DNA of 64,000 bases from Patescibacteria group bacterium (lineage in GTDB: Bacteria > Patescibacteriota > Dojkabacteria > JAKAPS01), in assembly GCA_025450075.1 (NCBI GenBank), contig JANWIC010000016.1:2005-66004 (forward strand). The letters are read 5' to 3'. Position 1 is the first letter of the stretch. Each line of letters begins with the position of its first letter. The notes beneath the pieces are model-generated. The model was not told where the DNA came from, searched no databases, and saw only the letters and a program-made list of their open reading frames with translations. The position numbers and the translations under genes were made by a program. Below are positions 37,131 to 62,842 of this stretch, piece after piece.

Positions 37131-37147
37131 CTATTAGTAATCAAACT

Positions 37148-37858
37148 ATGGGAGAGATTTGTAGTCAAGAATTAGATAATTTAAATTCATGGGAAGCAGC
37201 TGCAATGCAAGGTTTTAAAATATATAACCAAATGAATAAACCCGGTTGTATTGGTACTATTGTGCTACAGGTTCCAGATGCTGAAAGAATAATAACGATT
37301 ACATTAGAAGAAAATCAAGTATATAGTATCATTACCGAGCCTCAAGAAAATAATACGACGTTATTAGTATTTCAATCAAATGGAGTTTCATTTAGTCTTG
37401 TAGAATATGGAGGAAATTTAACAGAATTGCTAGGTGATCTAAAAGAAATAATGACAGGACTTACTTCAACTCCACAACAAGTAAGGAGAAATTCTTTAAG
37501 TGGTCGAGATTTAGATAGAAGAAGGAATCTAAAAAGAGCAATTGCATTAGCAAATAATGCATATTACGCAATAGAGGCATATTCCCTTTTATGGAAGGAA
37601 CATCATGATTGGCCAATTGATTTCCCTTATCTTAAAGGTAAAATACAATTCAGCAATCTTGATAATACGTACAGAATATCATATATAGTAGATGGAAATA
37701 TAGAAGCTTTTTTTGCATTTACAGCTTTTGACAATATCACAGATATGAAAGGTATTCGATTAGGAGAAATATATGGAAATACTGCGGCCATTGAAATTGC
37801 TGTTCATTATTTGTTTGATCAAATATATAATGGTGTCTTAAAGCCATCACTAAATTGA
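37148..37858 (+). CDS. Hypothetical cytoplasmic protein (236 aa), second of the tandem pair; possibly a distant paralogue of the first
   Basis: ORF track; similar length and a loosely similar central segment (IAAHYAYMIALHIG vs ALANNAYYAIEAYSLL). Confidence 0.4.
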   Translation: MGEICSQELDNLNSWEAAAMQGFKIYNQMNKPGCIGTIVLQVPDAERIITITLEENQVYSIITEPQENNTTLLVFQSNGVSFSLVEYGGNLTELLGDLKEIMTGLTSTPQQVRRNSLSGRDLDRRRNLKRAIALANNAYYAIEAYSLLWKEHHDWPIDFPYLKGKIQFSNLDNTYRISYIVDGNIEAFFAFTAFDNITDMKGIRLGEIYGNTAAIEIAVHYLFDQIYNGVLKPSLN

Positions 37859-41829: not shown

Positions 41830-42734
41830 ATGGCAGAATGTATCTCATGATTTTTCTTTGCTTCTTTTAAACCTGCAATTGCTAGGGCACTATCATATGA
41901 TATTTCTTTTTTCTCAAAAGAAAGCATATCTTCTAACGCATCTTGTATCTGGTTATCACGGATTGCATAAGCATCTCCCCCGGTTCGCTTGATTAATTCA
42001 ACCACTTTTTGTTCGTGTGGAGTATAGTATGTTGATACTGCTGTTGCAAGAGAAGAATCAGTTGAAATAATCTCATGTGAAAAATGGTCAGCAATTGGAT
42101 GGATCTTAGTCGTTTGAATGGCATAAAGTGGAGGAATATCATCAAGTCCTGCAACTAATCCTAAAAGTCCAGTCCCTGAACTTATGGGCATACATAAAGC
42201 ATCAACATTTTGAGGCAATTGTTTTTGTATTTCTTTCCCTAAACTTGAATATCCCTCTATGGCATTCGGGTCTTTTGATCCCACAAGATTAATCGCTTGA
42301 TTCTCTTTTGCAAATTGAAAGGCATCTTTTCTTGCGCGTGGAGAATAATGAATTGTGCACAAGTCAGTATGCGTCCCTATTATTTCCAATAATCTTTTCC
42401 TTTTATTTTCATCGGTATGAGAAGAAAGGAAAATATCAAGATATACACGATAAAAAATACAATACATTGCTGCAGATATTGCTGCATTTCCCGATGAAGA
42501 TATGACAAAATTATTTTTCCCTTCTTTGATCCAGTGTTGAAGTTGATAGGAAATGGCTCTATCTTTAAAAGATCCTGAAGGGTTTTGTGTCTCATCTTTT
42601 AAATATATATGATTCAAACCATATGCATGTGCAAGATTGACCGCCTCGTAAAGAGGTGTGTTCCCTTCAGCTGGTAAAGGGAGAGATTGAAAATTATTCG
42701 TAAAGTGTGTAGAATTACTACTATTGTTGACCAT
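41808..42734 (-). CDS. PLP-dependent enzyme, fold type II (Trp-synthase-beta / threonine-synthase / cysteine-synthase superfamily)
   Basis: PLP-lysine motif ..LKDETQNPSGSFKDRA.. preceded by GNTPLY; a glycine-rich loop ISSGTGLLGL; 308 aa. Confidence 0.7.
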   Translation of the reverse strand: MVNNSSNSTHFTNNFQSLPLPAEGNTPLYEAVNLAHAYGLNHIYLKDETQNPSGSFKDRAISYQLQHWIKEGKNNFVISSSGNAAISAAMYCIFYRVYLDIFLSSHTDENKRKRLLEIIGTHTDLCTIHYSPRARKDAFQFAKENQAINLVGSKDPNAIEGYSSLGKEIQKQLPQNVDALCMPISSGTGLLGLVAGLDDIPPLYAIQTTKIHPIADHFSHEIISTDSSLATAVSTYYTPHEQKVVELIKRTGGDAYAIRDNQIQDALEDMLSFEKKEISYDSALAIAGLKEAKKNHEIHSAICILTGI

Positions 42735-42760
42735 TATTTCGTATTATACAATTTTTACCT

Positions 42761-42931
42761 ATGAAAGACAAAACAGTTTTATGCCCTGAATGCCAAAATA
42801 CCACAGAACTTGAAAATGAAATTCGAGTTGGTGACATCGTTGAATGTCCTCATTGCGGATCAGAACTTCGGGTCGCTGATTTTGATTCTGATGGAAAGAT
42901 CCTTGTAAAGGTTATCCAGGAAGAGAAATAA
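42761..42931 (+). CDS. Small (56 aa) 4-Cys zinc-ribbon protein with an acidic C-terminal tail, LysW/ArgW (amino-group carrier protein)-like. It is not in the supplied ORF track because it is shorter than 60 aa.
   Basis: Own translation: MKDKTVLCPECQNTTELENEIRVGDIVECPHCGSELRVADFDSDGKILVKVIQEEK. The CPEC..(E.LEN.E)..V.C..CG.EL.V layout parallels my recollection of Thermus LysW. It is divergently transcribed from the PLP/ATP-grasp/NlpC-P60 operon. Confidence 0.4.
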   Translation: MKDKTVLCPECQNTTELENEIRVGDIVECPHCGSELRVADFDSDGKILVKVIQEEK

Positions 42932-43012: not shown

Positions 43013-45775
43013 TTGGGTCATATTCAACCGCAAATAGCACAGATGGAAACACAAGCAATTCCAGAAGGAATGCTTTACGGTACCTCTACACTTCTCGAAG
43101 CATTTCTACAAAATAATGGTGTTGGAACACTTCCAGTTTTTATTTTAGCAGCAGTACAAGCTGGCATAGTTAATTCTGAAGAAGAAGGTATACGCCGTGC
43201 AGTTGAAATTCTATCTCGATTTCAACCCAATGTTGATGTTTTAACTAAATACGGCTCACACTATAGTGATAACTGGCATCCACAAGGTGTTCGAGAATTA
43301 ATTAATACGATACATAGAAGAGAAGGTGAAAAAGTCCTCTATCCTCAAATTATTGCTTCAAGGGTTGGAGCAATTTCCCATGAATGTATTGCCAATTTGC
43401 TCACAGGTAATCTTGCACAATATCCCTCTCCTATTCAAACATCCCACATGCAATCAGAACTTCCAGGATTTGAATCTTTAAAATGTAATAGCATATTTGA
43501 TAGTAATCCAAATATATATGAGGATGCAATAACTAGAAATAATTCTGTATCCGATAAACATTTAGAACTTATTAATGATCATCGCCTTGCAATTCTTGCT
43601 GCGCTTTCTATATCTCCTCCTGATTATTGGAGAGCGAATGAAGCAGCTCGAGAATTAGCTTATCTTCTTATGCCAATATTCCATATTGTAAATAGAAAGC
43701 AGAAAAATCCTATTCAAGAAATACTTCGTCTTACCCATTCATTGGGAGGTATGCTCCCCAGTGTCATGATGAATCTTGCGAATGCCGCTGTTGCATATTA
43801 TGGCACTGATGCATTTAGAATCCCTCGAGCAATATTTGCCGAAGTACCTGTTTTATCGCAGCCAGGTGTTCGTGCGGGTAGAGCAGATCTAGTTGAGGTT
43901 GTTGCAATCAATGGACGTAAGCCTTCTTCTTCCGAAATAGAGCTAATTCGAGCATTTGCAAAAACAGCACGCGGATCGCTAGGATCTATTCATCAAAAAC
44001 TTAAAGAATTGCTCGGTGCGGATATCACATGGGAAATTTCTGACAATAAGTTTGCAATTGGTGATAACAATCCTCGATTCCGTCATCTTGCAATTCCTCG
44101 GGATGCAATAGCAAATGGGCCATTTGGTAAACACGAAATTCAAGTTAAAGCATATCATACTTTAGCAACTGTTGATGTTGCGATGGTATTAAACGATATG
44201 GAAAATCCATTCGGTAATGGTGCAATTAGTTGTGTACATCTACTTTATCGAATTGGAGATACCCTAGATGAAGCTGAAAAGATTACTTTTCAAATGAGTT
44301 CAGAAGAAATGCGAGAGTTTTTCAGAATTCATTATGGTAATCGACATAGTCGTGCAGAGCTTGAAGCTGTTTTTCGCATGTGGGGAGGTGTATTGCTTGC
44401 TGAAGCAAGAAGATATCTTGGTGTAAGTAATATTGTTAGACGTCCTAAGGAGAGCCCTGAATCAACAGGTCAAATGCCACTCATTAATGATGAAACTACT
44501 GGGAAATTTACAAGATTAATTGAAGAATCTCGTGAATTTTATCATCCTGAGAAATTAGAAAGACTTTTTCGTATTGAAGGGAGAAGAAGAAGCGGTGAAC
44601 CTAAATTGGTAATGGATTATAATTTGCTACTCCAATTAATTGTAGCTGGGAAAATTCAAGTGAGTGAAGATTTCGGTCCTTTAATAGGCGGCTTTATCCA
44701 TTGTCCACTTCATGAATTTGTACTTGCCGATCAAGGTTTACCACCTAAACTTGATGAATCTCCTTCATTTCATATTTTTGGCAATGGAAGATGGCATTGT
44801 TTTAGTTGTAATGCAGGAGGATCTATAGATCCTACTTCATTTCCTCCAGGTTGGAAAGGTGGAACAATTAAAGTTCGTACAAGAAAATCAAAAAGACAAC
44901 ATGCAATTACAAATGAAATGTTGGATGAAAGTCAAGTCGCTGTTTTGAATGATCTTTTTTTGATTCTCCAAGAGATATATAAATCCTCTACAAATGCACA
45001 AAACTATTTACAAGAAATCAGAGGATTAACTCCTGAGATATTAGCAAAATATGGAGTTGGATATTGGCCACCTGGTGCTCAGGGAAAAATATTAGAAAAG
45101 CTGATTGAGCAGGGATATACAATGGAGGATATTGATCGTGCAGGAATTAGGGTGCTTGTAAAACCAAAAAGATATAGAGATGAGGAGGGAAATGTATTTA
45201 CTTCTACCCCATACTATTGGTTTCCACTTAATGGTACAGTAGTTTTTAAGATCGGAGATGGTAAGGATGGTGATATGAATTTGTATGGAAGGAATGCATA
45301 TAAGACGCCAAAATCTTTATGGAGAAAAAATCCAAGAACTGGAAAGCCACAAAGGCCACGCGAACATTGGAAACTACAAACAAAAGTTCCTCATGGAGTA
45401 TTTAATCAACAAGTACTTAATGGCGAAATAAAATCAAAAAAAGTTGTCGTATTTGAAGCCGTAATTGATGCGTTGTCATATATGATTTTAACTGGAGAAG
45501 AAGATGTAGTAGCTATCATTGGTACACTAAATCATTATGCAGTAAGAAAGCTAAAAGATCTTGCATTACAAGGTGTACAAATTTGCCTTGCACTGGATAA
45601 CGACAGTACCGGGCAACTGACGATAAAACGGATTATTGCTGAATTAGAATCTTATGGGTGTGGAGAAATGGTATTTAATTATACTGAAATTTTAAAACAG
45701 CTTTTTCAAGAGCTTTCTTCTTTGAAAGATTTAAATGAGGTCCTTCTATTCCGAATTCAAGATCGACGGTCTTGA
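43013..45775 (+). CDS. Large (920 aa) protein. The C-terminal about 370 aa form a DnaG-type primase core (CHC2-like zinc finger plus TOPRIM); the N-terminal about 550 aa are an uncharacterised domain.
   Basis: Zinc-finger segment CPLHEFVLADQGLPPKLDESPSFHIFGNGRWHCFSCNAGGS (compare DnaG CPFH.E.TPSF.V.....YHCFGCG..GN); TOPRIM Glu (VVVFEAVIDALSYM) and DxD (CLALDNDSTGQ). It appears GC-richer than the flanking genes. Confidence 0.6.
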   Translation: MGHIQPQIAQMETQAIPEGMLYGTSTLLEAFLQNNGVGTLPVFILAAVQAGIVNSEEEGIRRAVEILSRFQPNVDVLTKYGSHYSDNWHPQGVRELINTIHRREGEKVLYPQIIASRVGAISHECIANLLTGNLAQYPSPIQTSHMQSELPGFESLKCNSIFDSNPNIYEDAITRNNSVSDKHLELINDHRLAILAALSISPPDYWRANEAARELAYLLMPIFHIVNRKQKNPIQEILRLTHSLGGMLPSVMMNLANAAVAYYGTDAFRIPRAIFAEVPVLSQPGVRAGRADLVEVVAINGRKPSSSEIELIRAFAKTARGSLGSIHQKLKELLGADITWEISDNKFAIGDNNPRFRHLAIPRDAIANGPFGKHEIQVKAYHTLATVDVAMVLNDMENPFGNGAISCVHLLYRIGDTLDEAEKITFQMSSEEMREFFRIHYGNRHSRAELEAVFRMWGGVLLAEARRYLGVSNIVRRPKESPESTGQMPLINDETTGKFTRLIEESREFYHPEKLERLFRIEGRRRSGEPKLVMDYNLLLQLIVAGKIQVSEDFGPLIGGFIHCPLHEFVLADQGLPPKLDESPSFHIFGNGRWHCFSCNAGGSIDPTSFPPGWKGGTIKVRTRKSKRQHAITNEMLDESQVAVLNDLFLILQEIYKSSTNAQNYLQEIRGLTPEILAKYGVGYWPPGAQGKILEKLIEQGYTMEDIDRAGIRVLVKPKRYRDEEGNVFTSTPYYWFPLNGTVVFKIGDGKDGDMNLYGRNAYKTPKSLWRKNPRTGKPQRPREHWKLQTKVPHGVFNQQVLNGEIKSKKVVVFEAVIDALSYMILTGEEDVVAIIGTLNHYAVRKLKDLALQGVQICLALDNDSTGQLTIKRIIAELESYGCGEMVFNYTEILKQLFQELSSLKDLNEVLLFRIQDRRS

Positions 45776-47181
45776 ATGGCAATAGATTGGGAAAATGGAT
45801 GAATCAATGGTCCGTTCATTGTGGGTATGTAAGGATTTTGCCAAAAGCTAATTATCCTTTTCCTGCGAAGAAATTCAACAACAAATAGCATCATTTCTAG
45901 CATTGCAACTTTTTCTCCTACACAGCTTCTTGACCCCCCTCCAAATGCAGAGAACGGTGGTTCATATCTTTTTCCGTGAGGATGTGTAGTTAGTCTTTGC
46001 TGATACCTTTCAAAATGAAATGAATCTGGATCAGGATAATATTCCTGCATTCGCTGTGTTCTACCAGGCATTAAAAATACAAGTGTCTTTTCGGCTACCC
46101 GATATAACTGAATTGATCCATCTTTGGTATCTACTGGAATAATCATTTCATGTATTGTTTTTCTAGGAAGAGGTGAAACTTGGGGATGGAGACGTAGCGT
46201 TTCATGAATGCATGCTGCAAGTGTTGGCAAATTTGCCAGTGAGTCAGGAGTACATGGTTCACCTGGATGATATTTATCTTCTATTTCTCTTTCTAAATGG
46301 TGATATGCATCAGGATGCCTTTCAAGTTCCTTAAATAAAAATGTTAAAGTATTTGTTGTCGTATCATGGGCAGCATAAATTACCATTAGCAAATTATTTA
46401 TGATTTCTTCATCTGTTAATTTCCGATTCTGTTCAAAGGGATACTGAACTTGCATTAATTGGCCAAGTATATCATCCTGAGGTGGCATTTCTCTTCTTTT
46501 ATCAATAATTCCTTTAAGGATCTCTACGAGCTTTTCACGAGATTGCATTGCATAGCGGTATGGTAAAAGCGGATTATTTGGTTGTCTAAAAATATCGAAT
46601 GCTGCAAGAGAAAAGGAATGCCAAAGTTTTTTCAACTTTGCAACAAGTAACTTATCTTCTCCTTCTGTTGAAAGTGCAAGATAAATTGCATATTTGAACG
46701 TAATATCTTGCGCAAGTTTCAAAATATTTACTCTTCCGGAAAGTGAAGTGAAAGCTTCAGCCATACATTGAAGAAGAAAATTACAATCTTCCTGTTGAAA
46801 TTTTCTGGGAGTGAGTCTTTCCAATACTGCATGTCGCAATTGGTCATGTATTTCTCCATCAGAAGTCAGTACACCTTGTGGAAACATTTCTCTTGCAATA
46901 ATATGGTATCCCCCACCTTCTCCAAAGATAAAATCGGATGAGTGAGTCAGAACGTACTTTTCTGCTTCTGCACCTAATAGAACTAGCGCAGGTTCTCCAT
47001 CGATCCAGTTGACCCAAAATGCATTACTTCCAGATTTTTCTTGTAATGAGGCTGGAAAACTATTTGGCCTTGCAATTAATTGATAAAATTGCAAAAAAGA
47101 GAATAAATCATGGCAAAAATTTGGAGCATCTCTCGCATCTAATGGACCTGTTTGAGTGAGCTGTTCGTTATCTTCATACAT
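45757..47181 (-). CDS. Cytochrome P450 monooxygenase
   Basis: Heme-thiolate loop FGGGSRSCVGEKVA, I-helix AAHDTT, ExxR (ETLRLHP) and PERF-like FHFERY; 474 aa. The 3' end overlaps the primase-like gene by 19 nt (convergent). Confidence 0.88.
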   Translation of the reverse strand: MYEDNEQLTQTGPLDARDAPNFCHDLFSFLQFYQLIARPNSFPASLQEKSGSNAFWVNWIDGEPALVLLGAEAEKYVLTHSSDFIFGEGGGYHIIAREMFPQGVLTSDGEIHDQLRHAVLERLTPRKFQQEDCNFLLQCMAEAFTSLSGRVNILKLAQDITFKYAIYLALSTEGEDKLLVAKLKKLWHSFSLAAFDIFRQPNNPLLPYRYAMQSREKLVEILKGIIDKRREMPPQDDILGQLMQVQYPFEQNRKLTDEEIINNLLMVIYAAHDTTTNTLTFLFKELERHPDAYHHLEREIEDKYHPGEPCTPDSLANLPTLAACIHETLRLHPQVSPLPRKTIHEMIIPVDTKDGSIQLYRVAEKTLVFLMPGRTQRMQEYYPDPDSFHFERYQQRLTTHPHGKRYEPPFSAFGGGSRSCVGEKVAMLEMMLFVVEFLRRKRIISFWQNPYIPTMNGPLIHPFSQSIAIQDRRS

Positions 47182-47183: not shown

Positions 47184-48734
47184 TTATTCAAAAGTCCAGA
47201 TCTTATGGTTAATATTGAAAGCAATCGCATTTACAATGGCAAAAGTAAACCAGACTTGCATAACATACAGGGTAGAAAAGGCGCTGTACTGGAGAAGTAA
47301 TCCAGCAAAAGCAGCAATAAACCCAATAAATACAGTTTTTGTATACACATCTGTTTTCTTCTTGAGTGCATTGAAAACGTTGAATATTATTACAAGTATG
47401 AATACCGCGAATGCTGAAAACCCAATAATTCCATTTTCTGTAAGTATTTCCAGATACTCGTTATTTACAATTCTCCAACCGATATCTTGTCCATACACAG
47501 ATGGGATCTGATATGGATTTGGCGCTTCATAAGGCCCGAAACTACCAGTACCTATTCCAAGTATTGGATGGGAACTAAAATAGTGAAGAGCTGCATTGCT
47601 AGTTATCGTCCTGTCTGAATCTTCTAAGGCAGTAGCGCGTTGCGTTAAGGTCTCAAGGGTTATTGGAGAATGGGTATAATGCAGAACAAAAATAAAGCCG
47701 GTAATAATAACTGTTAAAAGAATAGCACTCGTGATTATAACTTTTACATTAAGAATCCTTTTAATATTAAACAGAATAACTAATCCAACGGAAAAAGCTG
47801 CAGAATACCATGCTCCCCGGGAAAATGTCATTAATAAGTTAATGAGGCATAAGATAAATACAAGCGTACTTATAAAGATTAGCCTGAATGGAATACTCCT
47901 CTGAAAGAGTTGTCTTTGCTTTCTTCCCAACGATACAACCAGAACTGAAAGAGAAAGAGATACGGGAATAATGAGAAAATTTCCCCAGAATTGTGGTTCC
48001 GATTCTGTTGCCTGTACCCGTGGAAATCCAAATACTACTTTTGTATAGCCTTCACGAAGTCCTGATATTGCAGTAGGCAAGTTTAATGTCCCCGCGATAA
48101 ATTGAAAGACACCATATAGACAGACAATGAGTGATACACCAAGGAGAGCCCAAACTGTTTTTCGCAAAATATCTTTTGAGACAAAGAGATTGGAAATAAG
48201 AATGTAAGTAAAAAAGATAAAAAGATCAAATGAAAGCACAAAAAGACTTCTTGACTTGTTTATCGCATCAACAATAGAGGCAATTGTAATAATACTAAAA
48301 AGAATAAGAATATAAAATGAAGCGTCTTTTTTTATTCGTATTCCTAAAATATGATTTTTCTTATCGGTAAATATCACATAAAATGTGTATGCAATGAAGG
48401 TGAGTACAGTAAATACCTGAGTAAGCCGTAAGTTAAATGACGCATATGTTAGTGCTCCAATTCGTTCAAAAGGTAAAAAAAAGGCAATGATAGGAATTCC
48501 CATTTCTGGTCTTTCAAGTACTTTGCTTACTAAATAGATAATAAAGATTGCTCCAAGAATTATCGGAAATAATAAAAGGAAATAAAGCGCATTGCTTTTT
48601 GGAGAAAAATAATTGATTAAGAGAATACAAACAATTAATAGTAATGATACTTCAAGAAAATATTTTCTTTTCGTTGTTAATATAGTCGAGTTCCCCAGGT
48701 CTTGAAGAATTTTTCTGATATTATTTGCTGCCAT
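47184..48734 (-). CDS. O-antigen-ligase / Wzy-like polytopic membrane protein
   Basis: More than 10 TM segments; ...MTFSRGAWYSAAFSVGL... resembles the O-antigen ligase (Wzy_C) periplasmic-loop motif. It stops 3 nt before the P450 start, so the two are probably co-transcribed. Confidence 0.55.
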   Translation of the reverse strand: MAANNIRKILQDLGNSTILTTKRKYFLEVSLLLIVCILLINYFSPKSNALYFLLLFPIILGAIFIIYLVSKVLERPEMGIPIIAFFLPFERIGALTYASFNLRLTQVFTVLTFIAYTFYVIFTDKKNHILGIRIKKDASFYILILFSIITIASIVDAINKSRSLFVLSFDLFIFFTYILISNLFVSKDILRKTVWALLGVSLIVCLYGVFQFIAGTLNLPTAISGLREGYTKVVFGFPRVQATESEPQFWGNFLIIPVSLSLSVLVVSLGRKQRQLFQRSIPFRLIFISTLVFILCLINLLMTFSRGAWYSAAFSVGLVILFNIKRILNVKVIITSAILLTVIITGFIFVLHYTHSPITLETLTQRATALEDSDRTITSNAALHYFSSHPILGIGTGSFGPYEAPNPYQIPSVYGQDIGWRIVNNEYLEILTENGIIGFSAFAVFILVIIFNVFNALKKKTDVYTKTVFIGFIAAFAGLLLQYSAFSTLYVMQVWFTFAIVNAIAFNINHKIWTFE

Positions 48735-48777: not shown

Positions 48778-48850
48778 TGGGTAATGCAGGACTTGAACCT
48801 GCGGCCCTACGAATGTGAATCGTATGCTCTACCAGCTGAGCTAATTACCC
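48778..48850 (-). tRNA. tRNA-Val (anticodon CAC)
   Basis: Reverse complement folds as GGGTAAT / D-arm GCTC-AGCTGGTA-GAGC / anticodon stem TACGA-(TTCACAT)-TCGTA / T-arm GCAGG-TTCAAGT-CCTGC / ATTACCC, discriminator A. Confidence 0.8.
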
Positions 48851-48911
48851 GTGTGCTTATTATACTAAAATTCTTTATAAGCCTAAAGAAATTTGAAATT
48901 ATTCGGTAGGG

Positions 48912-49740: not shown

Positions 49741-50232
49741 GTGGTTATAAATTTAACTACCACAACATGTTGTATGAGATGCCCACATTGTAAACACCAT
49801 GAATCCAAAGTCGTAGATAAGCGAGATATTTTTGATTCGGGTATTATTCGCCGAAGAAGAGAATGTCTGTCTTGTTCAAAACGTTTCACAACTTATGAAA
49901 AAATTGATACGACGGATATTATGGTTATCAAAAAAGATGGAAGAAGAGAATCATTTGATGCTGAGAAATTAAAACGAGGATTAATGCGTGCTTGTGAAAA
50001 ACGTCCTATCAATATGAAACAAATTGATAAGATGACGGATGAAATTGAGGAATATATCCGAAAACTTAATGTTTCAGAAGTTACTTCAGATACCATCGGT
50101 GACCAGGTCGTACAGGCATTACAAAAAATAGATAAGGTAGCTTGTGTAAGATTCGCATCTGTGTATAAATCATTTCAAAATATAACTGAATTTGAAGAAG
50201 AAGTGCAGGCCCTGCTTCAAACTAATCCATAA
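49741..50232 (+). CDS. nrdR: Transcriptional repressor NrdR (zinc ribbon plus ATP-cone). The start is either GTG 49741 or, more likely given the promoter position, ATG 49774 (MRCPHC...).
   Basis: MRCPHCKHHESKVVDKRD...CLSCSKRFTTYE (zinc ribbon) followed by an ATP-cone; it is immediately upstream of nrdAB. Confidence 0.85.
   Translation: MVINLTTTTCCMRCPHCKHHESKVVDKRDIFDSGIIRRRRECLSCSKRFTTYEKIDTTDIMVIKKDGRRESFDAEKLKRGLMRACEKRPINMKQIDKMTDEIEEYIRKLNVSEVTSDTIGDQVVQALQKIDKVACVRFASVYKSFQNITEFEEEVQALLQTNP
49762..49773 (+). promoter_or_regulatory. Perfect 12-bp palindrome ACAACATGTTGT, an NrdR-box-like operator candidate, abutting the ATG of nrdR
   Basis: Palindrome read directly; it is similar to the NrdR box consensus (acaCwAtATaTwGtgt). 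Confidence 0.3.
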
Positions 50233-50251
50233 TTATTTTATCTGTACTGCC

Positions 50252-52978
50252 ATGATTGACACAATAAAAAAAAGAGATGGAAGAATAGTACGATTTGATA
50301 GAGAAAAAATCGAACGGGCAATTACGAAAGCATATATTGCAACCAGTACAGAGATAAATACGGATCTGATAACACATATCACGGATAGTGTCATCTCCGA
50401 CCTGTCAAAACATCAAGATAGAACTCCTGAAGTTGAAGAAATACAAGATTTAGTTGAGAGACAAATTGCTTCAAGTGGACTTTTTGAAGTTGCAAAAGCA
50501 TATATTTTGTATCGACATGAACATGAAAAAATACGTGTAGAAGAAAAACTTGAAAAAATAGAAACACGCCAACTGCAGGTTGTTTCACGGGATGGTTCCT
50601 CTTCTCCATTTTCACCATCAATCGTTCGAAACTTCCTAAAAAAAATTACGCATGAGAGGCTTTCGGCTACTGAAATATTAGAAATTATTCATGAAATAAC
50701 AAATGGTGTTTATGATGGTATTTCATCAAAAGAAATAACCAGAATTATCATTATGTCATTTATTGCAAGGGTGGAGCGAGACCCGATCTATTCTAAAATT
50801 GCAGCAGATATTCTTTTGAATGCAATGTATAAAGATGTCATTGGGGTTGATGAATTTGATAAAAACTTTGAAAAGAAATATCGTGAATCACTAGAGTCAC
50901 AAATGAAATTGGGGGTTTCAATCCAGCGCCTTGATCCAAGATTATTGGAATATGATTATGCAATGTTAAGTAAGGCGATGGTACTTAATCGAGATCATAT
51001 CTTCAATTATATGGGGATAGAAACCTTGTATGAGAGATATTTTACGCATGATTTTGAACAACATGTCATAGAACTTCCACAACATTACTATATGAGACTG
51101 GCTATGGGATTTGCTTTAAACGAAAAAGATAAGAACTCATGTTGCCTCGACTTCTATAACCTGCTTTCAACACTTCGATATGTTCCATCAACACCAACCC
51201 AGTTTCATGCAGGAACACTTCATCCACAGATGAGTTCATGCTATTTAACGACGGTAGAAGATGACCTTGCACATATTTTTAAATGTATTGGTGATAATGC
51301 CCAATTATCAAAATGGTCTGGAGGTCTAGGAAATGATTGGACAAATATTCGAGGAACCGGAGCTTTAATTAAAGGAACAAATGTCGGAAGCCAGGGAGTG
51401 ATCCCCTTCTTAAAGATTGATGATGCTACAACTGCCGCCATTAACAGAAGCGGAAAAAGACGAGGTGCTGCTTGTGTCTATCTTGAAACATGGCATTATG
51501 ATATTGAAGAATTTATTGAACTGCGAAAAAATACCGGAGATGAAAGAAGAAGAATCCATGATACTGATACAGCAAACTGGATTCCTGACCTATTCATGAA
51601 AAGAGTATTGGAGAATGGCGATTGGACATTATTTTCTCCTGATGAAACTCCTGAACTTCACCATGTATATGGTAAACAATTTGAAAAAATATATACCTCA
51701 TACGAGAAAAAAGCTGAAGAAGGAAAAATCCAACTTTATAAAAAAATTAGCGCACAATACCTTTGGCGGAAAATGATTAGTATGTTGTTTGAAACGGGTC
51801 ATCCATGGATAACTTTTAAAGACCCATGCAATCTTCGTTCTCCTCAAGATCACGTAGGAGTAGTTCATTCATCAAACTTATGTACTGAAATCACCCTTAA
51901 TACATCTGCAGATGAAACCGCTGTGTGTAATTTAGGCTCCATTAACCTTCCTGTCCATATGGGTAAAAACGGTAAAATTAATAAGAAAATGCTTAGCCAG
52001 ACAATTTCTTTTGCGATGCGGATGCTTGATAATATTATCGACTATAATTTTTATCCCACAATAGAAGCAGAACATGCAAACTATCGACATCGTCCTGTTG
52101 GACTTGGCATTATGGGGTTACAAGATATTTTCTTCGTGATGGGAATGCGTTTTGACAGTAACAAAGCTGTGGAATTTTCTGATGAACTGATGGAGTTTGT
52201 ATCTTATCATGCTATTCTTTCTTCTTCCCGCTTAGCAAAAGAAAAGGGACAATACCAAAGCTACCCTGGTTCAAAATGGGATAGAGGTATATTCCCCATT
52301 GATACGCTCGCCATTCTTGAAAAAGAACGAGGTATGAAAACAGGTATATCAAAAACTGGAAAGATGGATTGGACTCCTGTTCGGGAACATGTGAAAAAAT
52401 ATGGGATGAGAAATTCAAATTGTATGGCAATCGCTCCAACTGCAACTATATCAACAATTGCAGGAACATATCCATCAATTGAACCGATTTATGAGAACCT
52501 GTATGTAAAGTCAAATCAAACTGGGGAGTTTACAATTATGAATGAGTATCTGGTTAAAGATTTAAAGAAATTGCGTCTTTGGAATGAAGCAATCAGGACA
52601 AAATTAAAATATTTTGATGGATCTTTGCAAAAAATCCCTGAAATACCACAAAATTTAAAAGATATGTATAAAGAAGCTTTTGAGATTGATCCATTATGGG
52701 TTATTAAGCATGCGGCATATCGGGGGAAATGGATTGATCAGTCGCAATCTATCAATATATTTTCGTCAACTGTTTCTGGAAAAGAAATTTCTGATATCTA
52801 TATGGCAGCGTGGCAAATGGGATTAAAAACCACCTATTACCTGAGAAGTTTAGGAGCATCTAGAATTGAAAAAAGTACAATAGATATAAATAAGAAGTAT
52901 GAGAATGAAGAAGAAATAATTGTTGAAGAAATTAAAGCTTGCAGAATCGATGATCCTGAATGCGAAGCTTGCCAATGA
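50252..52978 (+). CDS. nrdA: Class I ribonucleoside-diphosphate reductase alpha subunit (with N-terminal ATP-cones)
   Basis: ATP-cone start MIDTIKKRDGRIVRFDREKIERAI, catalytic-core motifs (..SNLCTEI..; C-terminal CxxC ..CEAC), about 909 aa from the ATG at 50252. Confidence 0.9.
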   Translation: MIDTIKKRDGRIVRFDREKIERAITKAYIATSTEINTDLITHITDSVISDLSKHQDRTPEVEEIQDLVERQIASSGLFEVAKAYILYRHEHEKIRVEEKLEKIETRQLQVVSRDGSSSPFSPSIVRNFLKKITHERLSATEILEIIHEITNGVYDGISSKEITRIIIMSFIARVERDPIYSKIAADILLNAMYKDVIGVDEFDKNFEKKYRESLESQMKLGVSIQRLDPRLLEYDYAMLSKAMVLNRDHIFNYMGIETLYERYFTHDFEQHVIELPQHYYMRLAMGFALNEKDKNSCCLDFYNLLSTLRYVPSTPTQFHAGTLHPQMSSCYLTTVEDDLAHIFKCIGDNAQLSKWSGGLGNDWTNIRGTGALIKGTNVGSQGVIPFLKIDDATTAAINRSGKRRGAACVYLETWHYDIEEFIELRKNTGDERRRIHDTDTANWIPDLFMKRVLENGDWTLFSPDETPELHHVYGKQFEKIYTSYEKKAEEGKIQLYKKISAQYLWRKMISMLFETGHPWITFKDPCNLRSPQDHVGVVHSSNLCTEITLNTSADETAVCNLGSINLPVHMGKNGKINKKMLSQTISFAMRMLDNIIDYNFYPTIEAEHANYRHRPVGLGIMGLQDIFFVMGMRFDSNKAVEFSDELMEFVSYHAILSSSRLAKEKGQYQSYPGSKWDRGIFPIDTLAILEKERGMKTGISKTGKMDWTPVREHVKKYGMRNSNCMAIAPTATISTIAGTYPSIEPIYENLYVKSNQTGEFTIMNEYLVKDLKKLRLWNEAIRTKLKYFDGSLQKIPEIPQNLKDMYKEAFEIDPLWVIKHAAYRGKWIDQSQSINIFSSTVSGKEISDIYMAAWQMGLKTTYYLRSLGASRIEKSTIDINKKYENEEEIIVEEIKACRIDDPECEACQ

Positions 52979-52995
52979 TTTAATCAAATAACTTT

Positions 52996-54003
52996 ATGAA
53001 AACCATAAAAAAAACAATCCTTAATGCATCAGCAACAGATCCAAATAAAATATTGCCGATGAAGTATAAATGGGCGCGTGAATTCTATAAACAGGGAGTT
53101 GCAAATAACTGGGTTCCTGAAGAAGTCATTATGCAAAATGATGTGGAAACATGGAAATCTACCAAGGGATTAAGTGATGATGAGCGACGGCTCATCATGT
53201 GGAATATGGGATTTTTTTCAACTGCAGAAAGTCTTACCGCAAACAATATTGTCCTTTCAATGTATCGGCATATCACCAATCCTGAATGCAGGCAATATCT
53301 CCTTCGTCAAGCGTATGAAGAGGCTGTCCATACTGATACGTTTATCTATTGCTGTGATACATTGGGTCTGGACCCTGACAAGGTATATTCCATGTACAAT
53401 GAAATACCGAGCATTAAAGCAAAAGATGATTTTGTAGTAAATATGACTAAATCAATTCTTGACGAAAATTTCTCAACAAAAGGAGCAATAAATATACAGC
53501 GTTTTGTACATGATCTTGTCGGATTTTATATCATTATGGAAGGAATATTTTTTTATGCAGGATTTGTCATGATGCTTTCAATGCTCAGGCAAAGAAAAAT
53601 GGTTGGGGTTGGAGAACAGTTCCAGTTTATCCTTCGGGATGAATCTGTACACTTAGCCTTTGGCACAGAACTTATTAAAACTATATTTGCTGAAAATCCC
53701 GAAGTGTTAACAAAAGAATTTGCAGATACAATTCGAGTGGATATTCTTACAGGTGTTGAACTAGAATATGCATATGCTAAGGATTGTCTTCCTCACGGAA
53801 TTCTTGGATTGCAAGCAGATACTATTTTGCAATATTTACAATACATTGCTGACCGTAGACTGGAAAGGATAGGATTTAAAAAAGAATTTGGATCTAAAAA
53901 TCCATTTCCATGGATGAGCGAGATAATTGATCTTCGTAAAGAAAAGAATTTTTTTGAAACAAGAGTAACAGAATATCAAACAGGATCTCTAAGCTGGGAT
54001 TAA
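52996..54003 (+). CDS. nrdB: Class I ribonucleotide reductase beta (R2) subunit, di-metal/tyrosyl radical
   Basis: Ferritin-like di-iron ligands (..EEAVHTDTF.. and ..DESVHLAFG..); 335 aa; directly downstream of nrdA. Confidence 0.9.
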   Translation: MKTIKKTILNASATDPNKILPMKYKWAREFYKQGVANNWVPEEVIMQNDVETWKSTKGLSDDERRLIMWNMGFFSTAESLTANNIVLSMYRHITNPECRQYLLRQAYEEAVHTDTFIYCCDTLGLDPDKVYSMYNEIPSIKAKDDFVVNMTKSILDENFSTKGAINIQRFVHDLVGFYIIMEGIFFYAGFVMMLSMLRQRKMVGVGEQFQFILRDESVHLAFGTELIKTIFAENPEVLTKEFADTIRVDILTGVELEYAYAKDCLPHGILGLQADTILQYLQYIADRRLERIGFKKEFGSKNPFPWMSEIIDLRKEKNFFETRVTEYQTGSLSWD

Positions 54004-57071: not shown

Positions 57072-58301
57072 ATGGAAGAAATTCAACAATCCCCAGTTGT
57101 GGAAGAACAACAAACTACCATGCATCGATCTACGCTTATCAAATATTTAGTACTTTTCTCAATTGCTTCAATTATACTATCTGCAATTATAGGAGGTATC
57201 ATAGGTGGAATAGCCGGGGGTGTTGTCGCAAAGTTCTTTCCGAATAACGGAACAGTACAAAACCAGCCGTTAAAAGTTGTAAATGAACAATCAGCTGTGA
57301 TTGATGCAGTGAAAAAAGCTAATCCTGCTGTTGTAAGTATTATCATTTCAAAAAACCTTCCAAGTACATATAACCCGCTTGACCCGTTCGGTTTTCTGAA
57401 TAATGGAGGAAGCGGTGGAACATCTCAACAAGAAGTTGGAGGAGGATCAGGATTTATCATCACTTCTGACGGTTTAATAGTGACGAATAAACATGTTGCA
57501 TCAGATACATCTAGCACATATACAGTTATTTTAACATCAGGAAAGCAATATAACGGGAAAATAGTTGCAACAGATCCTACTAATGATATTTCTATCATAA
57601 AAATAGAAGCTTCAAATCTTCCAACCGTAACACTTGCAAGTTCTACTTCTCTGCAATTGGGTGAAAGCGTCATTGCAATAGGTAATGCACTAGGACAATA
57701 TCAAAATACTGTTGATGTCGGGGTAGTATCTGGAATAAACAGAGTTGTAACTGCTTCTGACCCGACTGGAAATACAAATGAAACATTGCATAACGTCATC
57801 CAAACAGATGCACAGATAAATCCTGGCAATTCAGGTGGACCATTATTAAACCTTGAAGGACAAGTGATTGGCATAAATACTGCAGTTGCACAAAATGCCC
57901 AGGGAATTGGTTTTGCAATTCCAATAGATCAGGCAAAAGCTGATATTACGCAAGTGCAATCGACAGGAAAGATCATAAAGCCGGAATTAGGTGTCCGATA
58001 TATCCCAATAGATAATAACTATATCGCAGCACATCCGAATATACCATATACGTATGGAGCCATTGTTACAACCAATGATTCCTCTCCTGCAGTAGTATCC
58101 GGAAGTCCAGCTGATAAGGCAGGTATTGTATCAGGGGATATTATCCTTGAGGTAAACGGAGTAAAAATTGATGATACAAATTCACTTGCAAGTCTTATCC
58201 AAAGCCATAACGTTGGTGATACAATTACTCTAAAGATTTATCACAACAATGCTGAAAAAACAGTTAGTGTAAAACTGGACCAGGCATTTAGTAGCCAATA
58301 A
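57072..58301 (+). CDS. htrA: HtrA/DegP-family serine protease (trypsin-like domain plus one PDZ domain), N-terminally membrane anchored
   Basis: Catalytic His region GSGFIITSDGLIVTNKHV, Ser region GNSGGPLLN, a PDZ domain at the C-terminus; N-terminal TM. Confidence 0.85.
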   Translation: MEEIQQSPVVEEQQTTMHRSTLIKYLVLFSIASIILSAIIGGIIGGIAGGVVAKFFPNNGTVQNQPLKVVNEQSAVIDAVKKANPAVVSIIISKNLPSTYNPLDPFGFLNNGGSGGTSQQEVGGGSGFIITSDGLIVTNKHVASDTSSTYTVILTSGKQYNGKIVATDPTNDISIIKIEASNLPTVTLASSTSLQLGESVIAIGNALGQYQNTVDVGVVSGINRVVTASDPTGNTNETLHNVIQTDAQINPGNSGGPLLNLEGQVIGINTAVAQNAQGIGFAIPIDQAKADITQVQSTGKIIKPELGVRYIPIDNNYIAAHPNIPYTYGAIVTTNDSSPAVVSGSPADKAGIVSGDIILEVNGVKIDDTNSLASLIQSHNVGDTITLKIYHNNAEKTVSVKLDQAFSSQ

Positions 58302-59004
58302 ATATTTCAGTCTTGATTTGCGATTCAGGAATAGAAAGAGCAGTTACTTCTTCTCTCATTCCCTGCACCATAGACATTGACCCTGAAATATAAAATAAAC
58401 TTGAGGAATAATCTGGTATGATTCTCTTCAAATCTTCTTTACCTACCCGTCCGGTTTTTCCTTTCCAGGTTGAATGGATACCGGTAATTGTTGGAATATA
58501 TTGAAAATTCGGGTTTTCTTTTTCCATATGAAGAAATTCTTCATGGAAAAGCATTTCTTCTTCATGAGAATATGATGCAATGAGAGTTATGGGAGTTTGT
58601 TTCTTTGCAAATGTTGCATCAAGAACCATACTTCGAAATGGTGTAATGCCTATTCCTCCGGAAAGAAACACATGATGTCCTTCATTTACCATTACAAATT
58701 TTCCTAACGGTCCGAATGCATTCAAAATGCTTCCCTCCTTTAACGTTGCTAATGCAAACTTATAACTGCTTTGCAAAATACGAGTTGTTATCATATAGGT
58801 ATCTTCCTGTGGTGCAGAACAAAGAGAGAAAAAACGATTTATCCCTCTTTCATCTACTCCTTCATGAGGATAAGTAATCCGGATAAATTGTCCTGCAGTA
58901 TATTCCATTTCTGTTTTTTGAAAGAAAAATGAATATGTAGTTGGATTACGGATAAGTCTTTTTATAAGTGTTAAAGTATGTTGCTGGGGAGGATTCATTG
59001 ACAC
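58288..59004 (-). CDS. FAD/NAD(P)-binding oxidoreductase of the ferredoxin-NADP+ reductase (FNR-like) family
   Basis: FAD-binding R-x-F-S motif (RFFSLCSAP), the GG-x-G-x-TP NAD(P) motif (SGGIGITPFRSM), and ..YISGSMSM..; 238 aa. Confidence 0.65.
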   Translation of the reverse strand: MSMNPPQQHTLTLIKRLIRNPTTYSFFFQKTEMEYTAGQFIRITYPHEGVDERGINRFFSLCSAPQEDTYMITTRILQSSYKFALATLKEGSILNAFGPLGKFVMVNEGHHVFLSGGIGITPFRSMVLDATFAKKQTPITLIASYSHEEEMLFHEEFLHMEKENPNFQYIPTITGIHSTWKGKTGRVGKEDLKRIIPDYSSSLFYISGSMSMVQGMREEVTALSIPESQIKTEIFIGY

Positions 59005-60188: not shown

Positions 60189-61046
60189 TTAAATGAATTC
60201 TTTATACAGCTCAGAAATATCTATATTTGATATATTCTGCTTCACTAATGGAAGAGGTTTGATTTGAGGTAAATCATCCTGATAAGTATCTTTGTTTTCT
60301 TCGTAAAAAAGTCCTAATGGAATTTTATCTCCCCATTCAATAGCTTTTTCATATGCTTTCGTACTGTCATGAGGAGTATAGTTGCCTTCTTCCAGCTTAT
60401 ATATCCTTTCTCTATACCATGGATAAGTATGGATATGGTTAAAACTGACACATGGTTGTAATACATTTACAAATGAAAAGCCTTCATGCTTTATGCCGTC
60501 AACAATAAGCTTGGTAGTATAGGTAGGATCCCCTGCAAAACCACGTGCAACATATGTGGCTCCTTGTGTTATTGCAGTTACAAGCGGGTTTAGACGGACT
60601 TCAATTACCCCTAATGGCGTTGATTTCGATTTGAATCCCTTATCAGATGTGGGAGCCGTTTGACCTGTTGTAAGACCATATACCTGATTGTCATGCAAAA
60701 TAACCGTAATATTTGGATTCCCTCTACATGCAGTAATAAAATGAGAAAGACCCTCTCCTAAGAGATCGCCGTCTCCTCCAACTACAATAACCGGTATTTC
60801 ATGGTTTGCAATTTTAATCGCTTCAGCAACGGGTATTGCACGGCCATGTAAGCCATGGAATCCGTATGCATTGATAAAGCTGCACATATTTCCTGAACAG
60901 CCGACTCCATACACCATCATGACATTATGTGGTTCAAAATCCATTGAGACTAAAGCATTTTTTATCGAAGCCCATATACCAAAATCCCCACATCCTGGAC
61001 ACCAGGTAGGAAAAATAGGTGATGTGAAATCATTTACGCTAACCAT
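60189..61046 (-). CDS. porB: Pyruvate/2-oxoacid:ferredoxin oxidoreductase beta subunit (TPP-binding)
   Basis: WCPGCGDFG start; TPP-binding GDG-x(n)-N region (VVGGDGDLLGEG...); 285 aa; overlaps porA. Confidence 0.85.
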   Translation of the reverse strand: MVSVNDFTSPIFPTWCPGCGDFGIWASIKNALVSMDFEPHNVMMVYGVGCSGNMCSFINAYGFHGLHGRAIPVAEAIKIANHEIPVIVVGGDGDLLGEGLSHFITACRGNPNITVILHDNQVYGLTTGQTAPTSDKGFKSKSTPLGVIEVRLNPLVTAITQGATYVARGFAGDPTYTTKLIVDGIKHEGFSFVNVLQPCVSFNHIHTYPWYRERIYKLEEGNYTPHDSTKAYEKAIEWGDKIPLGLFYEENKDTYQDDLPQIKPLPLVKQNISNIDISELYKEFI

Positions 61047-62842
61047 TTTTTTAGTCCTTTCTGATTTTTAATTGCTCGTATTCGCTGTACTAATTCTTCA
61101 GGGAAGAATGGTCTTCCGTCGTATTTAAGAATTTTGTTCCCAATCTCATACCCGGTATACTCACTAATGAGGCTTCCAAGCTGTGCAGTCATGTTATTCT
61201 CAATAAGGATAGGGGTCTTGCATATTTCCAATAATTCATTCACTCGCTTTGCTGGGAACGGAGAGATATAGAGAATATGGAGAAGATTAACACTTACGTT
61301 TTCTCTCCGAAGAATTTCCATAGCTTCAAGTATCGGTCCCTTTGTTGATCCCCATGCAAAAATGGTAAAATCCGCTTTTGCGGGACCATACAATACTGGT
61401 TCAGGAAGCTCAGCACTTGCGGCAATAAATTTCTTAAATCTCTTATCCACCATATTGATACGCATTTCTGATTCTTCATTCGAAAAGCCATGTTCATCAT
61501 GTTCATCGCTATTTGCAAGGAAAATACCATTTTTCATACCCGGCAAGGTTCTAAGTGATACCCCATCTTTTGCTTGAAGGTCAAATCGTTTATATATTCC
61601 AATTGCCTGAAGTTGTTCAGGTGTTGCAATTTTCCCCCTCTGTATTTTTATATTCTTATCATCAAAAGGGTATGTACTTTTTGGACTTTCTGCCAAGAAT
61701 TTATCGGATAAGATAATGACCGGCAGTTGGTATGTCTCAGCTAGATTGTGGGCTTGTATAGTGACATAAAAGCACTCTTCAGTATCTCCCGGTGCAACGA
61801 CTATACGAGGAAATTCTCCCTGCGAGGCATGTAGAACAAATTTCAAATCTCCCTGGTCAGTCCAAGTTGGAAGTCCCGTTGCAGGTCCCGGTCTTTGTAC
61901 AACAACATACACCATCGGTGTTTCAGTAATTGCAGCAAGTCCCAGTGATTCAACCATTAATGAAAACCCTCCTCCTGCAGTGCCAGTCATAGCTCGAACT
62001 CCTGCGTAATATGCTCCGATTGCCATATTAGCTGCAGAAATTTCGTCTTCAGTATGTTTCACTACAATATTGTATTGCAATTGCTTTGATGCCATATACT
62101 GCAATAATGTAGAAGAAGGAGTCATAGGATATCCCGCGTAGAATTTTACACCTGCTTTAATGGCACCCATGCCAATGGCTTCATTTCCGCCTAATACCAT
62201 TTGCGTTTGAGAATGTTTTTCGTTTTTTTCCAATCTGTATGGATATGAGCTGTTATCAAAGTGCTCTTTAATATAGTCAAATCCTGCTTTAGCTGCCCTA
62301 ATATTTAAATCGATGACTTCCTGTCCTTTATCTGCAAATACTTCTTTAAACAATTCATCCAGGATTGTTAAATCATATGCAAGAATTGCCATACTTGCAC
62401 CCATTGCAACCGTATTTCTCATCAATCTATCTGCCCCTGAGTTTTTTGAAAGGATTGCTAAAGGAACTGGGCATAAAACAAGATCTTTTCTGGAAGAAGT
62501 TTCAGTTGCAATATCATTCTCATCAGGATCAAACATGATAAGAGCCTTTTCACTTAATTCAAAGAGATGTTTTGTGACACTTTCCTTATTGAGAGCAATC
62601 AAAAAATTTACTGTCTTGAATGGAGCATATACCTTTGAATCTCTGACCGTTAACTGGAACGTATTATGTCCTCCTCTGATAAGGGAAGGATATTCGGAAT
62701 AAGAATGGACAAATAATCCTCCTCTTGTGCATATCTTGGAAAAAAGTACTCCGGATACAGCTATACCAAATCCCGCCTCACCGGCGATTTTCCATGTCAT
62801 GTTATTGATTATGTTGGGCTTTTTTTTGCTGGACAGTTTCAT
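61034..62842 (-). CDS. porA: Pyruvate/2-oxoacid:ferredoxin oxidoreductase alpha subunit with an N-terminal gamma-subunit fusion (the start may be the internal MTWKIAGEAG..)
   Basis: Gamma-like N-terminus (..W.IAGEAGFGI..) followed by the alpha-subunit transketolase-like domains; 602 aa. Confidence 0.85.
   Translation of the reverse strand: MKLSSKKKPNIINNMTWKIAGEAGFGIAVSGVLFSKICTRGGLFVHSYSEYPSLIRGGHNTFQLTVRDSKVYAPFKTVNFLIALNKESVTKHLFELSEKALIMFDPDENDIATETSSRKDLVLCPVPLAILSKNSGADRLMRNTVAMGASMAILAYDLTILDELFKEVFADKGQEVIDLNIRAAKAGFDYIKEHFDNSSYPYRLEKNEKHSQTQMVLGGNEAIGMGAIKAGVKFYAGYPMTPSSTLLQYMASKQLQYNIVVKHTEDEISAANMAIGAYYAGVRAMTGTAGGGFSLMVESLGLAAITETPMVYVVVQRPGPATGLPTWTDQGDLKFVLHASQGEFPRIVVAPGDTEECFYVTIQAHNLAETYQLPVIILSDKFLAESPKSTYPFDDKNIKIQRGKIATPEQLQAIGIYKRFDLQAKDGVSLRTLPGMKNGIFLANSDEHDEHGFSNEESEMRINMVDKRFKKFIAASAELPEPVLYGPAKADFTIFAWGSTKGPILEAMEILRRENVSVNLLHILYISPFPAKRVNELLEICKTPILIENNMTAQLGSLISEYTGYEIGNKILKYDGRPFFPEELVQRIRAIKNQKGLKKWLA

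Follow-up and report, generated by a model that had tools for sequence, protein, structure and literature searches.

A divergent cytochrome P450 gene at the murB position of an envelope-glycan locus in a Candidate Phyla Radiation genome

The window analysed here is a 64-kb stretch of DNA from a Patescibacteria genome (contig JANWIC010000016.1) belonging to the Candidate Phyla Radiation (CPR). It carries a gene for a cytochrome P450, which is preceded by a gene for a Wzy_C-type polytopic membrane protein and faces a convergent gene for a primase-like protein. The P450 and primase-like genes together fill a segment that is specific to this genome, and in sister contigs murB is found at this position; the mapping of this replacement of murB by the two genes is the main new result. 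The features of the locus and of the wider region are given in Table 1. The window is otherwise an ordinary piece of chromosome, encoding UvrAB, FtsA/FtsZ, GatAB, DnaE, RNase HII, an F-type ATP synthase, MscS and NrdAB.

Table 1. Features of the P450 locus and of related genes in the 64-kb window (positions are those of the window).
Feature	Position	Strand	Details
Genome-specific segment	42932..47183	.	4,252 bp; between LysW-like and Wzy genes; holds only the P450 and primase-like genes
Primase-like protein	43013..45775	+	920 aa, orphan; Toprim_2 47.7 bits; convergent to P450
Inverted repeat ATTCAAGA-N7-TCTTGAAT	45755..45777	.	Spans both stop codons; read directly
Cytochrome P450	45757..47181	-	474 aa, ATG start, soluble; open reading frame and PF00067
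Haem-binding loop FGGGSRSCVG	45916..45945	-	Residues 413-422; fits FxxGxRxCxG
Meander motif FHFERY	46003..46020	-	Residues 388-393; R392 conserved, Pro position is Phe390
K-helix ExxR motif ETLRLHP	46183..46203	-	Residues 327-333; E327 and R330 invariant in alignment
I-helix oxygen-activation motif AAHDTT	46357..46374	-	Residues 270-275; acid-alcohol pair D273-T274
Wzy_C polytopic membrane protein	47184..48734	-	PF04932 72.8 bits (cutoff 31.7); directly upstream of P450
tRNA-Val(CAC)	48778..48850	-	43 nt upstream of Wzy start; TATAAT 8 nt upstream of the tRNA
NrdR, NrdA, NrdB (O2-dependent class I ribonucleotide reductase)	49741..54003	+	NrdB 284.9 bits
FNR/Fre-type FAD/NAD(P)-binding reductase	58288..59004	-	238 aa; NAD_binding_1 62 bits; under every NCBIfam cutoff
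Two-subunit 2-oxoacid:ferredoxin oxidoreductase	60189..62842	-	alpha/gamma 61034-62842 (602 aa), beta 60189-61046 (285 aa)

The P450 open reading frame (ORF) matches positions 14-431 of the 462 in the PF00067 profile with 173.8 bits (cutoff 22.8), and the probability that a stop-free frame of 474 codons would arise by chance at 36% GC is 1.9e-15. The I-helix consensus (A/G)Gx(D/E)T(T/S) is satisfied as A270-A-H-D273-T274-T, the usual Gly being replaced by an Ala that is also present in the relatives P0017 and P0025, and the thiolate ligand Cys420 is encoded by the TGT codon at 45922-45924. When the protein was aligned with its 14 best relatives (15 sequences), residues E327, R330, R392, F413, G416, C420 and G422 were invariant, and insertions specific to the query were seen near residues 343-352 and 396-410. 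No N-terminal membrane anchor was detected, as the peak hydropathy across the first 60 aa is 0.75. The AlphaFold2 (AF2) model has a pLDDT of 81.7 and a pTM of 0.86, and in Foldseek comparisons with solved P450s it gave TM scores of 0.77-0.86 (CYP51, CYP725A4 and CYP120A1) with E ~1e-22. Judged on its sequence, the ORF is an intact, bona fide P450 with a confidently predicted fold. An earlier note on this DNA had called it a P450 from its four signature motifs, and this call is confirmed by the profile score, the motif positions and the predicted fold; the note had also considered that careful alignment might reveal a pseudo-P450 in which the ligand Cys or the ExxR residues are substituted, and both are intact. 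As the Asp-Thr pair is kept, the mechanism should be that of a conventional monooxygenase-type P450.

The protein has only distant relatives. Among 5.8 billion clusters the sole close match was the protein itself, and when 1.84 billion representatives were scanned exhaustively with HMMER, 22,698 P450 matches were obtained, of which the best full-length ones other than itself are 28-33% identical. No P450 more than 33% identical was present among 15 billion proteins, sister assemblies included, and a P450 scan of species-representative genomes, a set without the source genome, gave no relative. The highest-scoring matches, of ~1,000 aa, were rejected as close relatives; they are gene models in which P450s stand in tandem, from oomycetes, a chytrid and a snail, and their scores add up several domains. 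The named near matches come from Ktedonobacterales and other Chloroflexota, Chitinophagales (Bacteroidota) and Streptomyces (Actinomycetota), one being annotated as a 'retinoid hydroxylase', and none of them is from a CPR organism. All scores against the NCBIfam P450 subfamilies were far under the respective cutoffs. The protein does not group inside a P450 clade that is ubiquitous in its lineage, which the earlier note had named as the outcome that would count against acquisition. By the convention of CYP nomenclature members of a family share at least 40% identity, so a protein that is at most 33% identical to anything would found a new CYP family.

A neighbour-joining (NJ) tree of 107 single-domain matches, computed from Poisson distances, placed the P450 within a 24-member clade together with CYP120-like proteins. 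Its nearest neighbours are themselves CYP120-like, with P0017 scoring 294.9 bits and P0021 212.8 bits against Synechocystis CYP120A1 (2ve3). The pendant branch of the P450 is the 15th longest of the 107, and its nearest-neighbour identity in the trimmed alignment is 0.29 against a median of 0.42. The sister in the tree, P0052, is another long branch (26.5% identity, 53/60 bootstraps) and the pairing may be due to long-branch attraction; on the 4-kb contig of P0052 an ABC exporter was the only neighbour seen.

CYP120A1, the retinoic acid hydroxylase of Synechocystis (PDB 2VE3), is likewise a soluble bacterial P450 of ~450 aa and has a similar fold (TM 0.76-0.84), yet its identity to the query is ~22% (76.9 bits), below the 40% expected within CYP120. 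Some of the CYP120-like relatives carry the same AAHDTT variant, but their N-terminal PPGxxGxP is absent from the query, and the query is in a CPR genome and not in a cyanobacterium or in Chloroflexota. The best PDB sequence match is CYP51 of Methylococcus capsulatus (PDB 6MI0/6MCW; 93 bits, E 1.6e-25), which is also the best fold match (TM 0.78-0.86) and shows a partial likeness at the B'-helix region (Y..I.....F..GV...D). However, identity to CYP51 is 20-24%, again below 40%, there is no sterol-pathway context around the query, and the CYP51 I-helix signature AG[Q/H]HTS is not present: in the alignment AAHDTT stands opposite AGHHTS of the M. capsulatus enzyme, with Asp273 replacing His. These comparisons would place the protein, on a long branch, in the neighbourhood of bacterial CYP120 and CYP51 proteins, and a new CYP family would have to be named for it. 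It adds a family to a well-known superfamily, in an unusual host, and does not amount to a system of a new kind.

The host was placed using DnaE, for which the closest sequence is that of a sister (74% identical; ENA ERZ25039496), followed by a relative (53%; GCA_021806925.1) and then by Candidatus Dojkabacteria (WS6) at ~48%. The gene order GatCAB-DnaE-ribosomal proteins-ATP synthase-MscS is common to the window and to those relatives, and together these results indicate a sparsely sampled CPR lineage near Dojkabacteria. The suggestion in the earlier note that the genome is CPR-like agrees with this, and also with NrdA, whose best matches are in CPR phyla; the matches from the NrdA scan were at most 60% identical, belonged to CPR, DPANN and other phyla, and lacked common synteny. 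The 10-kb DnaE flanks in ERZ25039496 contig_22189 and in GCA_021806925.1 end at MscS, ~7 kb before the P450 locus. In the former contig (L028 7221-12502) GatB and DnaE are each called as two genes, which are probably assembly frameshift errors, and gene absences in the ERZ25039496 assembly are therefore to be read cautiously.

Sister contigs covering the locus itself were found by scanning metagenome contigs with the Wzy-like protein, and the three with matching GC (35-37%), L038, L039 and L040, carry Wzy orthologs that are 55-57% identical to that of the window. Contig L039 has the order NrdR (70%) - DsbD (54%) - tRNA-Val(CAC) (94.7%, DNA) - GT1 glycosyltransferase - Wzy (56%), and contig L040 the order Wzy (55%) - 387-aa ORF - LysW-like zinc-ribbon (42%) - pyridoxal phosphate (PLP)-dependent enzyme/PALP (46%). 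Contig L038, which is from a different sample, has Wzy (57%) followed by a 388-aa ORF. The 387-aa and 388-aa ORFs are MurB (MurB_C 87-95 bits plus a FAD-binding domain), and the genes, of ~1.1 kb, lie at 1202-2368 of L038 and 660-1823 of L040. Thus murB directly follows Wzy in both of the sister contigs that reach past Wzy, where it abuts or overlaps the Wzy stop codon much as the P450 does here. The flanks in the window match those of the sisters on both sides, with NrdR-DsbD-tRNA-Val-Wzy on one and LysW-like (42761-42931)-PALP (41808-42734) on the other, and no murB is present in the 64-kb window. It may have moved elsewhere in the genome or been lost, which is relevant to peptidoglycan synthesis.

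The three Wzy proteins are mutually equidistant (57, 54 and 53%), and as murB is a universal gene that occupies the slot in two of the three lineages of this trichotomy, the simplest reading is that the P450 state is derived. No P450 matches were found in 41 Wzy loci. Orthologs shared by this genome and a sister are 35-91% identical (median ~62%), poorly conserved hypotheticals being 35-47% identical, so a vertically inherited P450 would have shown far above the 33% ceiling. The GC content at third codon positions (GC3) of the P450 is 0.232 against 0.260 +/- 0.037 for the window, and its codon distance is 0.094 against 0.127 +/- 0.033, which indicates that the gain is old or that the source was of similar composition. 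Based on these sequence comparisons the P450 is an accessory gain outside the core genome of this CPR lineage, and the acquisition proposed in the earlier note held when it was checked: murB is in the slot in the sister contigs, and no protein of more than 33% identity was found anywhere.

A viral source was also considered. No relatives were found in viral contigs (IMG/VR), PHROGs gave no match for either the P450 or the Wzy-like protein, and viral P450 folds in BFVD, at 14-18% identity, are not closer than those of cellular origin. The 3' end of tRNA-Val and the codons of the primase zinc finger have in common an 18-nt repeat (83% identical, with 11 nt identical), which was judged to be due to chance; the tRNA-Val is conserved in a sister, and Wzy stands between it and the segment.

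The stop codon of the Wzy gene and the ATG of the P450 gene are separated by 2 nt (TAAcaATG). The earlier note had placed the P450 start 3 nt after Wzy, and it is correct that the genes directly adjoin one another, the figure of 3 being the difference between coordinates and not the gap. The tRNA-Val is the probable start of the transcription unit, and no terminator-like sites were found on the minus strand between it and the P450 stop codon. Co-transcription with Wzy, as had been suggested, is consequently plausible from the 2-nt gap and the lack of a terminator-like site, and a predicted hairpin lies at the 3' end of the P450 gene. A Shine-Dalgarno-like motif precedes only 2 of the 49 genes in the window, so that its absence in front of the P450 is uninformative. 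No PDB sequence relative of the Wzy-like protein was detectable.

TATAAT-like boxes lie within ~15 nt upstream of many starts in the window, for example those of 41808-42734, 59271-60158 and 61034-62842, which suggests that mRNAs with no leader or a very short one may be widespread in this CPR genome. The strongest sigma-70-like promoter of the region (48893-48922) has the form TTGAAA-18-TATAAT (11/12) and overlaps the presumed TTG start of DsbD/CcdA (48912), the true start of which is probably further downstream.

Like the P450, and to the same degree, the primase-like protein is an orphan, and a search of 5.8 billion clusters returned its self-match alone. Its likeness to DnaG is limited to residues ~545-890 (CHC2 zinc finger and Toprim), where it scores 45 bits against TIGR01391 (cutoff 283.6) and matches phrog_47 among the PHROGs, and DnaG/CHC2 primases from phage and plasmid records share 21-27% identity with this C-terminal third. 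The N-terminal ~540 aa gave no match to any family, phage or plasmid, and the single-sequence AF2 model was unusable (pLDDT 34). The 19-nt overlap of the P450 3' end with the convergent primase-like ORF, which the earlier note had described, is correct by the coordinates. The overlap is held within a near-perfect palindrome at 45755-45777, ATTCAAGATCGACGGTCTTGAAT, and owing to this the P450 and the primase-like protein share the C-terminal hexapeptide IQDRRS before their stop codons. The palindrome is unique in the window, where none would be expected by chance, and the extended hairpin has a predicted stability of -15 to -20 kcal/mol (z ~ -2.4) with no U-tract. It could be a shared 3' hairpin serving as a terminator, a stabiliser or a protein-binding site.

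A P450 of this type would need a source of electrons. The 2-oxoacid:ferredoxin oxidoreductase (OFOR) of the window has the domains POR_N, POR, PFOR_II and PFO_beta_C and scores 364.7 bits against PRK11866 and 349.1 bits against TIGR02177 (cutoff 261.9). The earlier note had listed it as a pyruvate:ferredoxin oxidoreductase (PFOR); an enzyme acting on 2-oxoacids and ferredoxin is indeed present, but it consists of two subunits and differs in this from a classical PFOR. The FNR-like flavoprotein that had been named as a possible redox partner was found to be an FNR/Fre-type module, and its gene is co-oriented with the OFOR genes and downstream of them. Between the OFOR and FNR-like genes there is a 295-aa ORF with no Pfam or NCBIfam match, which could join that electron-transfer cluster.

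In class IV P450 systems an OFOR stands in for the NAD(P)H reductase (PMC11173547). The architecture of the OFOR here is the same two-subunit one as in the class IV system of Sulfolobus (CYP119 with ferredoxin and OFOR), by analogy with which it may be able to feed the P450 without NAD(P)H. The differences are that the P450 is unrelated to CYP119 (NF041177, 19 bits) and that the OFOR is 14 kb away and unlinked; of the partners that define class IV, the window contains an OFOR and no ferredoxin. The presence of an oxygen-dependent class I ribonucleotide reductase (RNR), which had also been noted, is upheld by the NrdB score and by the finding of NrdA, and an enzyme that depends on O2 fits an organism that meets oxygen. 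Haem biosynthesis is generally missing from CPR genomes. Cytochrome b5-like families (10.1101/2021.11.17.468889) and a terminal oxidase (PMC13293708) have been described in CPR.

Taken as a whole, the locus is probably best explained by a functional soluble P450 that was gained, either long ago or from a source of similar composition, as an accessory gene in the murB slot of an envelope-glycan operon. The P450 would act as a soluble monooxygenase with a haem-thiolate site and an Asp-Thr oxygen-activation pair, and should for that reason need O2 and two electrons per turnover. Together with the convergent primase-like gene it would have replaced murB in an operon which in the sisters runs tRNA-Val - [GT] - Wzy - murB. 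Transcription would be by read-through from the tRNA-Val/Wzy promoter with translation coupled to the Wzy stop codon, so that the P450 would be expressed from the slot that in the sisters belongs to murB. Electrons would be delivered by a ferredoxin encoded outside the window and reduced either by the OFOR, in a class IV-like manner, or by the FNR-like reductase, and haem would be scavenged. The nearest characterised folds, CYP51, CYP725A4 and CYP120A1, act on sterol, terpenoid and retinoid skeletons, and from these folds the substrate might be a hydrophobic isoprenoid-like or lipid-like molecule from the host or the surroundings.

Several observations weigh against this explanation. The meander PERF motif is altered, with Phe390 where at least 90% of the relatives have Pro, and the AF2 model is of low confidence at residues ~398-417, which adjoin the Cys loop. 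The substrate suggestion is weak, as it derives from folds of proteins that are 20-24% identical. No ferredoxin or flavodoxin gene is present in the 64-kb window, so the immediate electron donor of the P450 would be encoded elsewhere. The polarity of the change from murB to P450 relies on parsimony (two of three lineages) and on the universality of murB, and in the more distant Wzy loci neither of the two comes after Wzy. Lastly, of the usual marks of a genomic island, absence from the same locus in relatives was observed, but there is no integrase, no att-like repeat, no junction repeat of at least 8 nt and no compositional signal of transfer.

To the earlier note the adjacency of the two genes suggested oxidative tailoring of an envelope lipid or glycan, or of a host-derived substrate. 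If the two genes formed a functional pair, the P450 would be a dedicated partner of the Wzy-like protein and would oxidise, as a tailoring step, a glycan linked to undecaprenyl, a lipid of the envelope or an envelope substrate taken from the host. This would be in keeping with the tight coupling of the genes on one strand, with the locus being an envelope-glycan cluster in relatives, with a polyprenyl-phosphate sugar transferase (Glycos_transf_4) at 38653-39750, and with nearest folds that act on isoprenoid-type substrates, polyprenols being isoprenoids. However, the pairing is unique to this genome. The 55-57% identical Wzy orthologs are followed by MurB, and in distant CPR-like loci (Wzy 33-35% identical) the order is Wzx flippase - Wzy_C - Wzy_C - muramoyl-alanine amidase; the partners of Wzy elsewhere are thus GT1, MurB, a flippase, Wzy_C and an amidase, and never a P450. 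Nor was a Wzy_C gene found beside P450 relatives in any of the seven genomic contexts examined, which hold ABC transporters, GH3/MFS genes, two-partner secretion, sensor kinases, or a lipid A acyltransferase with a halogenase, and are typical of large diderm genomes. The P450 also came with a primase-like gene that is unrelated to it, an arrival more in keeping with insertion than with a co-evolved module. The claim of a functional pair is therefore not supported and a dedicated Wzy partner is unlikely; in terms of gene order, the adjacency resembles what would result from insertion at the 3' slot of an operon already in place. Equally unlikely is that the P450 was ancestral in this CPR clade and was lost or replaced by murB in the sisters, its orphan status then reflecting fast evolution and poor sampling. 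The wholly native codon usage and GC3, the lack of mobility signatures and the high divergence often seen in CPR proteins would all accord with this, and since the distant Wzy loci are also without murB after Wzy the polarity is not strict. Against it stand the murB slot in two of three equidistant lineages, the failure to find a P450 above 33% identity in any sister assembly when even poorly conserved hypotheticals exceed this, and the named near matches, which lie in Chloroflexota, Bacteroidota and Actinomycetota.

That the P450 is a non-functional relic, either unexpressed or inactive for want of haem or a redox partner, is a rather doubtful alternative. It draws on the general lack of haem biosynthesis in CPR, on the missing ferredoxin, and on the gene being an orphan with an altered meander motif and no promoter of its own; yet a frame of this length is most improbable by chance, the catalytic motifs have all been kept over a residence long enough for native codon usage, and haem proteins do occur in CPR. 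Quite improbable, too, is a reading in which an undescribed CPR mobile element survives in its cargo, the P450, and its replication gene, the primase-like one, with the P450 driven by ferredoxin and OFOR. Were this true, host-derived isoprenoid lipids would be modified in an oxygen-dependent manner by an otherwise fermentative episymbiont, and a P450 system of this kind would not have been described from the CPR before. An assembly or binning artefact, in which a foreign P450 segment was joined into a CPR contig, might be suspected from a metagenome-assembled source and from the orphan status of both genes in the segment. Sister-syntenic genes nevertheless lie within 100 bp on both sides, so that a chimeric contig would have had to be joined twice, each time at a gene boundary, and by its GC, GC3 and codon usage the segment cannot be told from the rest of the window; with syntenic flanks and uniform composition a chimeric assembly is very unlikely, and we give it almost no weight.

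If the P450 is indeed a gain in the murB slot, then accessory oxidative chemistry can be gained even under strong genome reduction, and a cell with an intact haem monooxygenase must obtain haem, low-potential electrons and, at times, oxygen. As a family-level orphan, with at most 33% identity to other proteins, the enzyme is a candidate for new P450 chemistry, and the replacement of murB by a P450 is a concrete case of the remodelling of a CPR envelope locus. The explanatory value is limited by this being one gene of a very familiar superfamily, without a clue to its substrate or a conserved context. The metabolic complement of Dojkabacteria has been described as extremely minimal and the metabolism of CPR bacteria at large as minimal and mostly fermentative, and oxygen-related traits and PFOR are sparse in CPR and thought to be laterally acquired (10.1101/2019.12.18.881540; PMC13293708). 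Haem monooxygenases are rare in CPR, and a literature search of limited coverage turned up no paper in which a P450 is assigned to a CPR genome. The P450 resembles the cytochrome o oxidase of Saccharibacteria, PFOR and the cytochrome b5-like proteins in being a patchy, lineage-specific accessory gene linked to haem or O2 in a genome that is otherwise minimal, and it differs from those traits in that its gain is traceable to a single locus, where a defined replacement is seen.

Some further features of the window were recorded. Copies that share 52-60% identity with the NrdA of the RNR (50192-54003) occur in several CPR phyla, DPANN (Nanoarchaeia and Woesearchaeota), Nitrososphaerales, Planctomycetota and others, which points to horizontal exchange of the O2-dependent class I RNR having been widespread between small-genome lineages. 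At 40456-42931 a LysW-like zinc-ribbon carrier (56 aa, PF21344 44 bits) is encoded beside a threonine-synthase-like PLP enzyme and an ATP-grasp ligase, and the pairing of LysW with PALP is kept in sister contig L040 (1824-2929). By their annotation these genes may form an amino-group carrier-protein pathway, which would be unexpected in a minimal genome. ORFs of 236-497 aa without a Pfam or NCBIfam match were found at 25879-27372, 54046-55470, 59271-60158 and 36405-37858. A CvpA (colicin V production) membrane domain fused to a CAP/SCP domain and a PGA_cap protein (poly-gamma-glutamate capsule synthesis, CapA-like) are encoded at 55953-56945 and 62910-63860; the PGA_cap protein adjoins the OFOR genes and is surface-related, as is the CvpA-CAP/SCP fusion.

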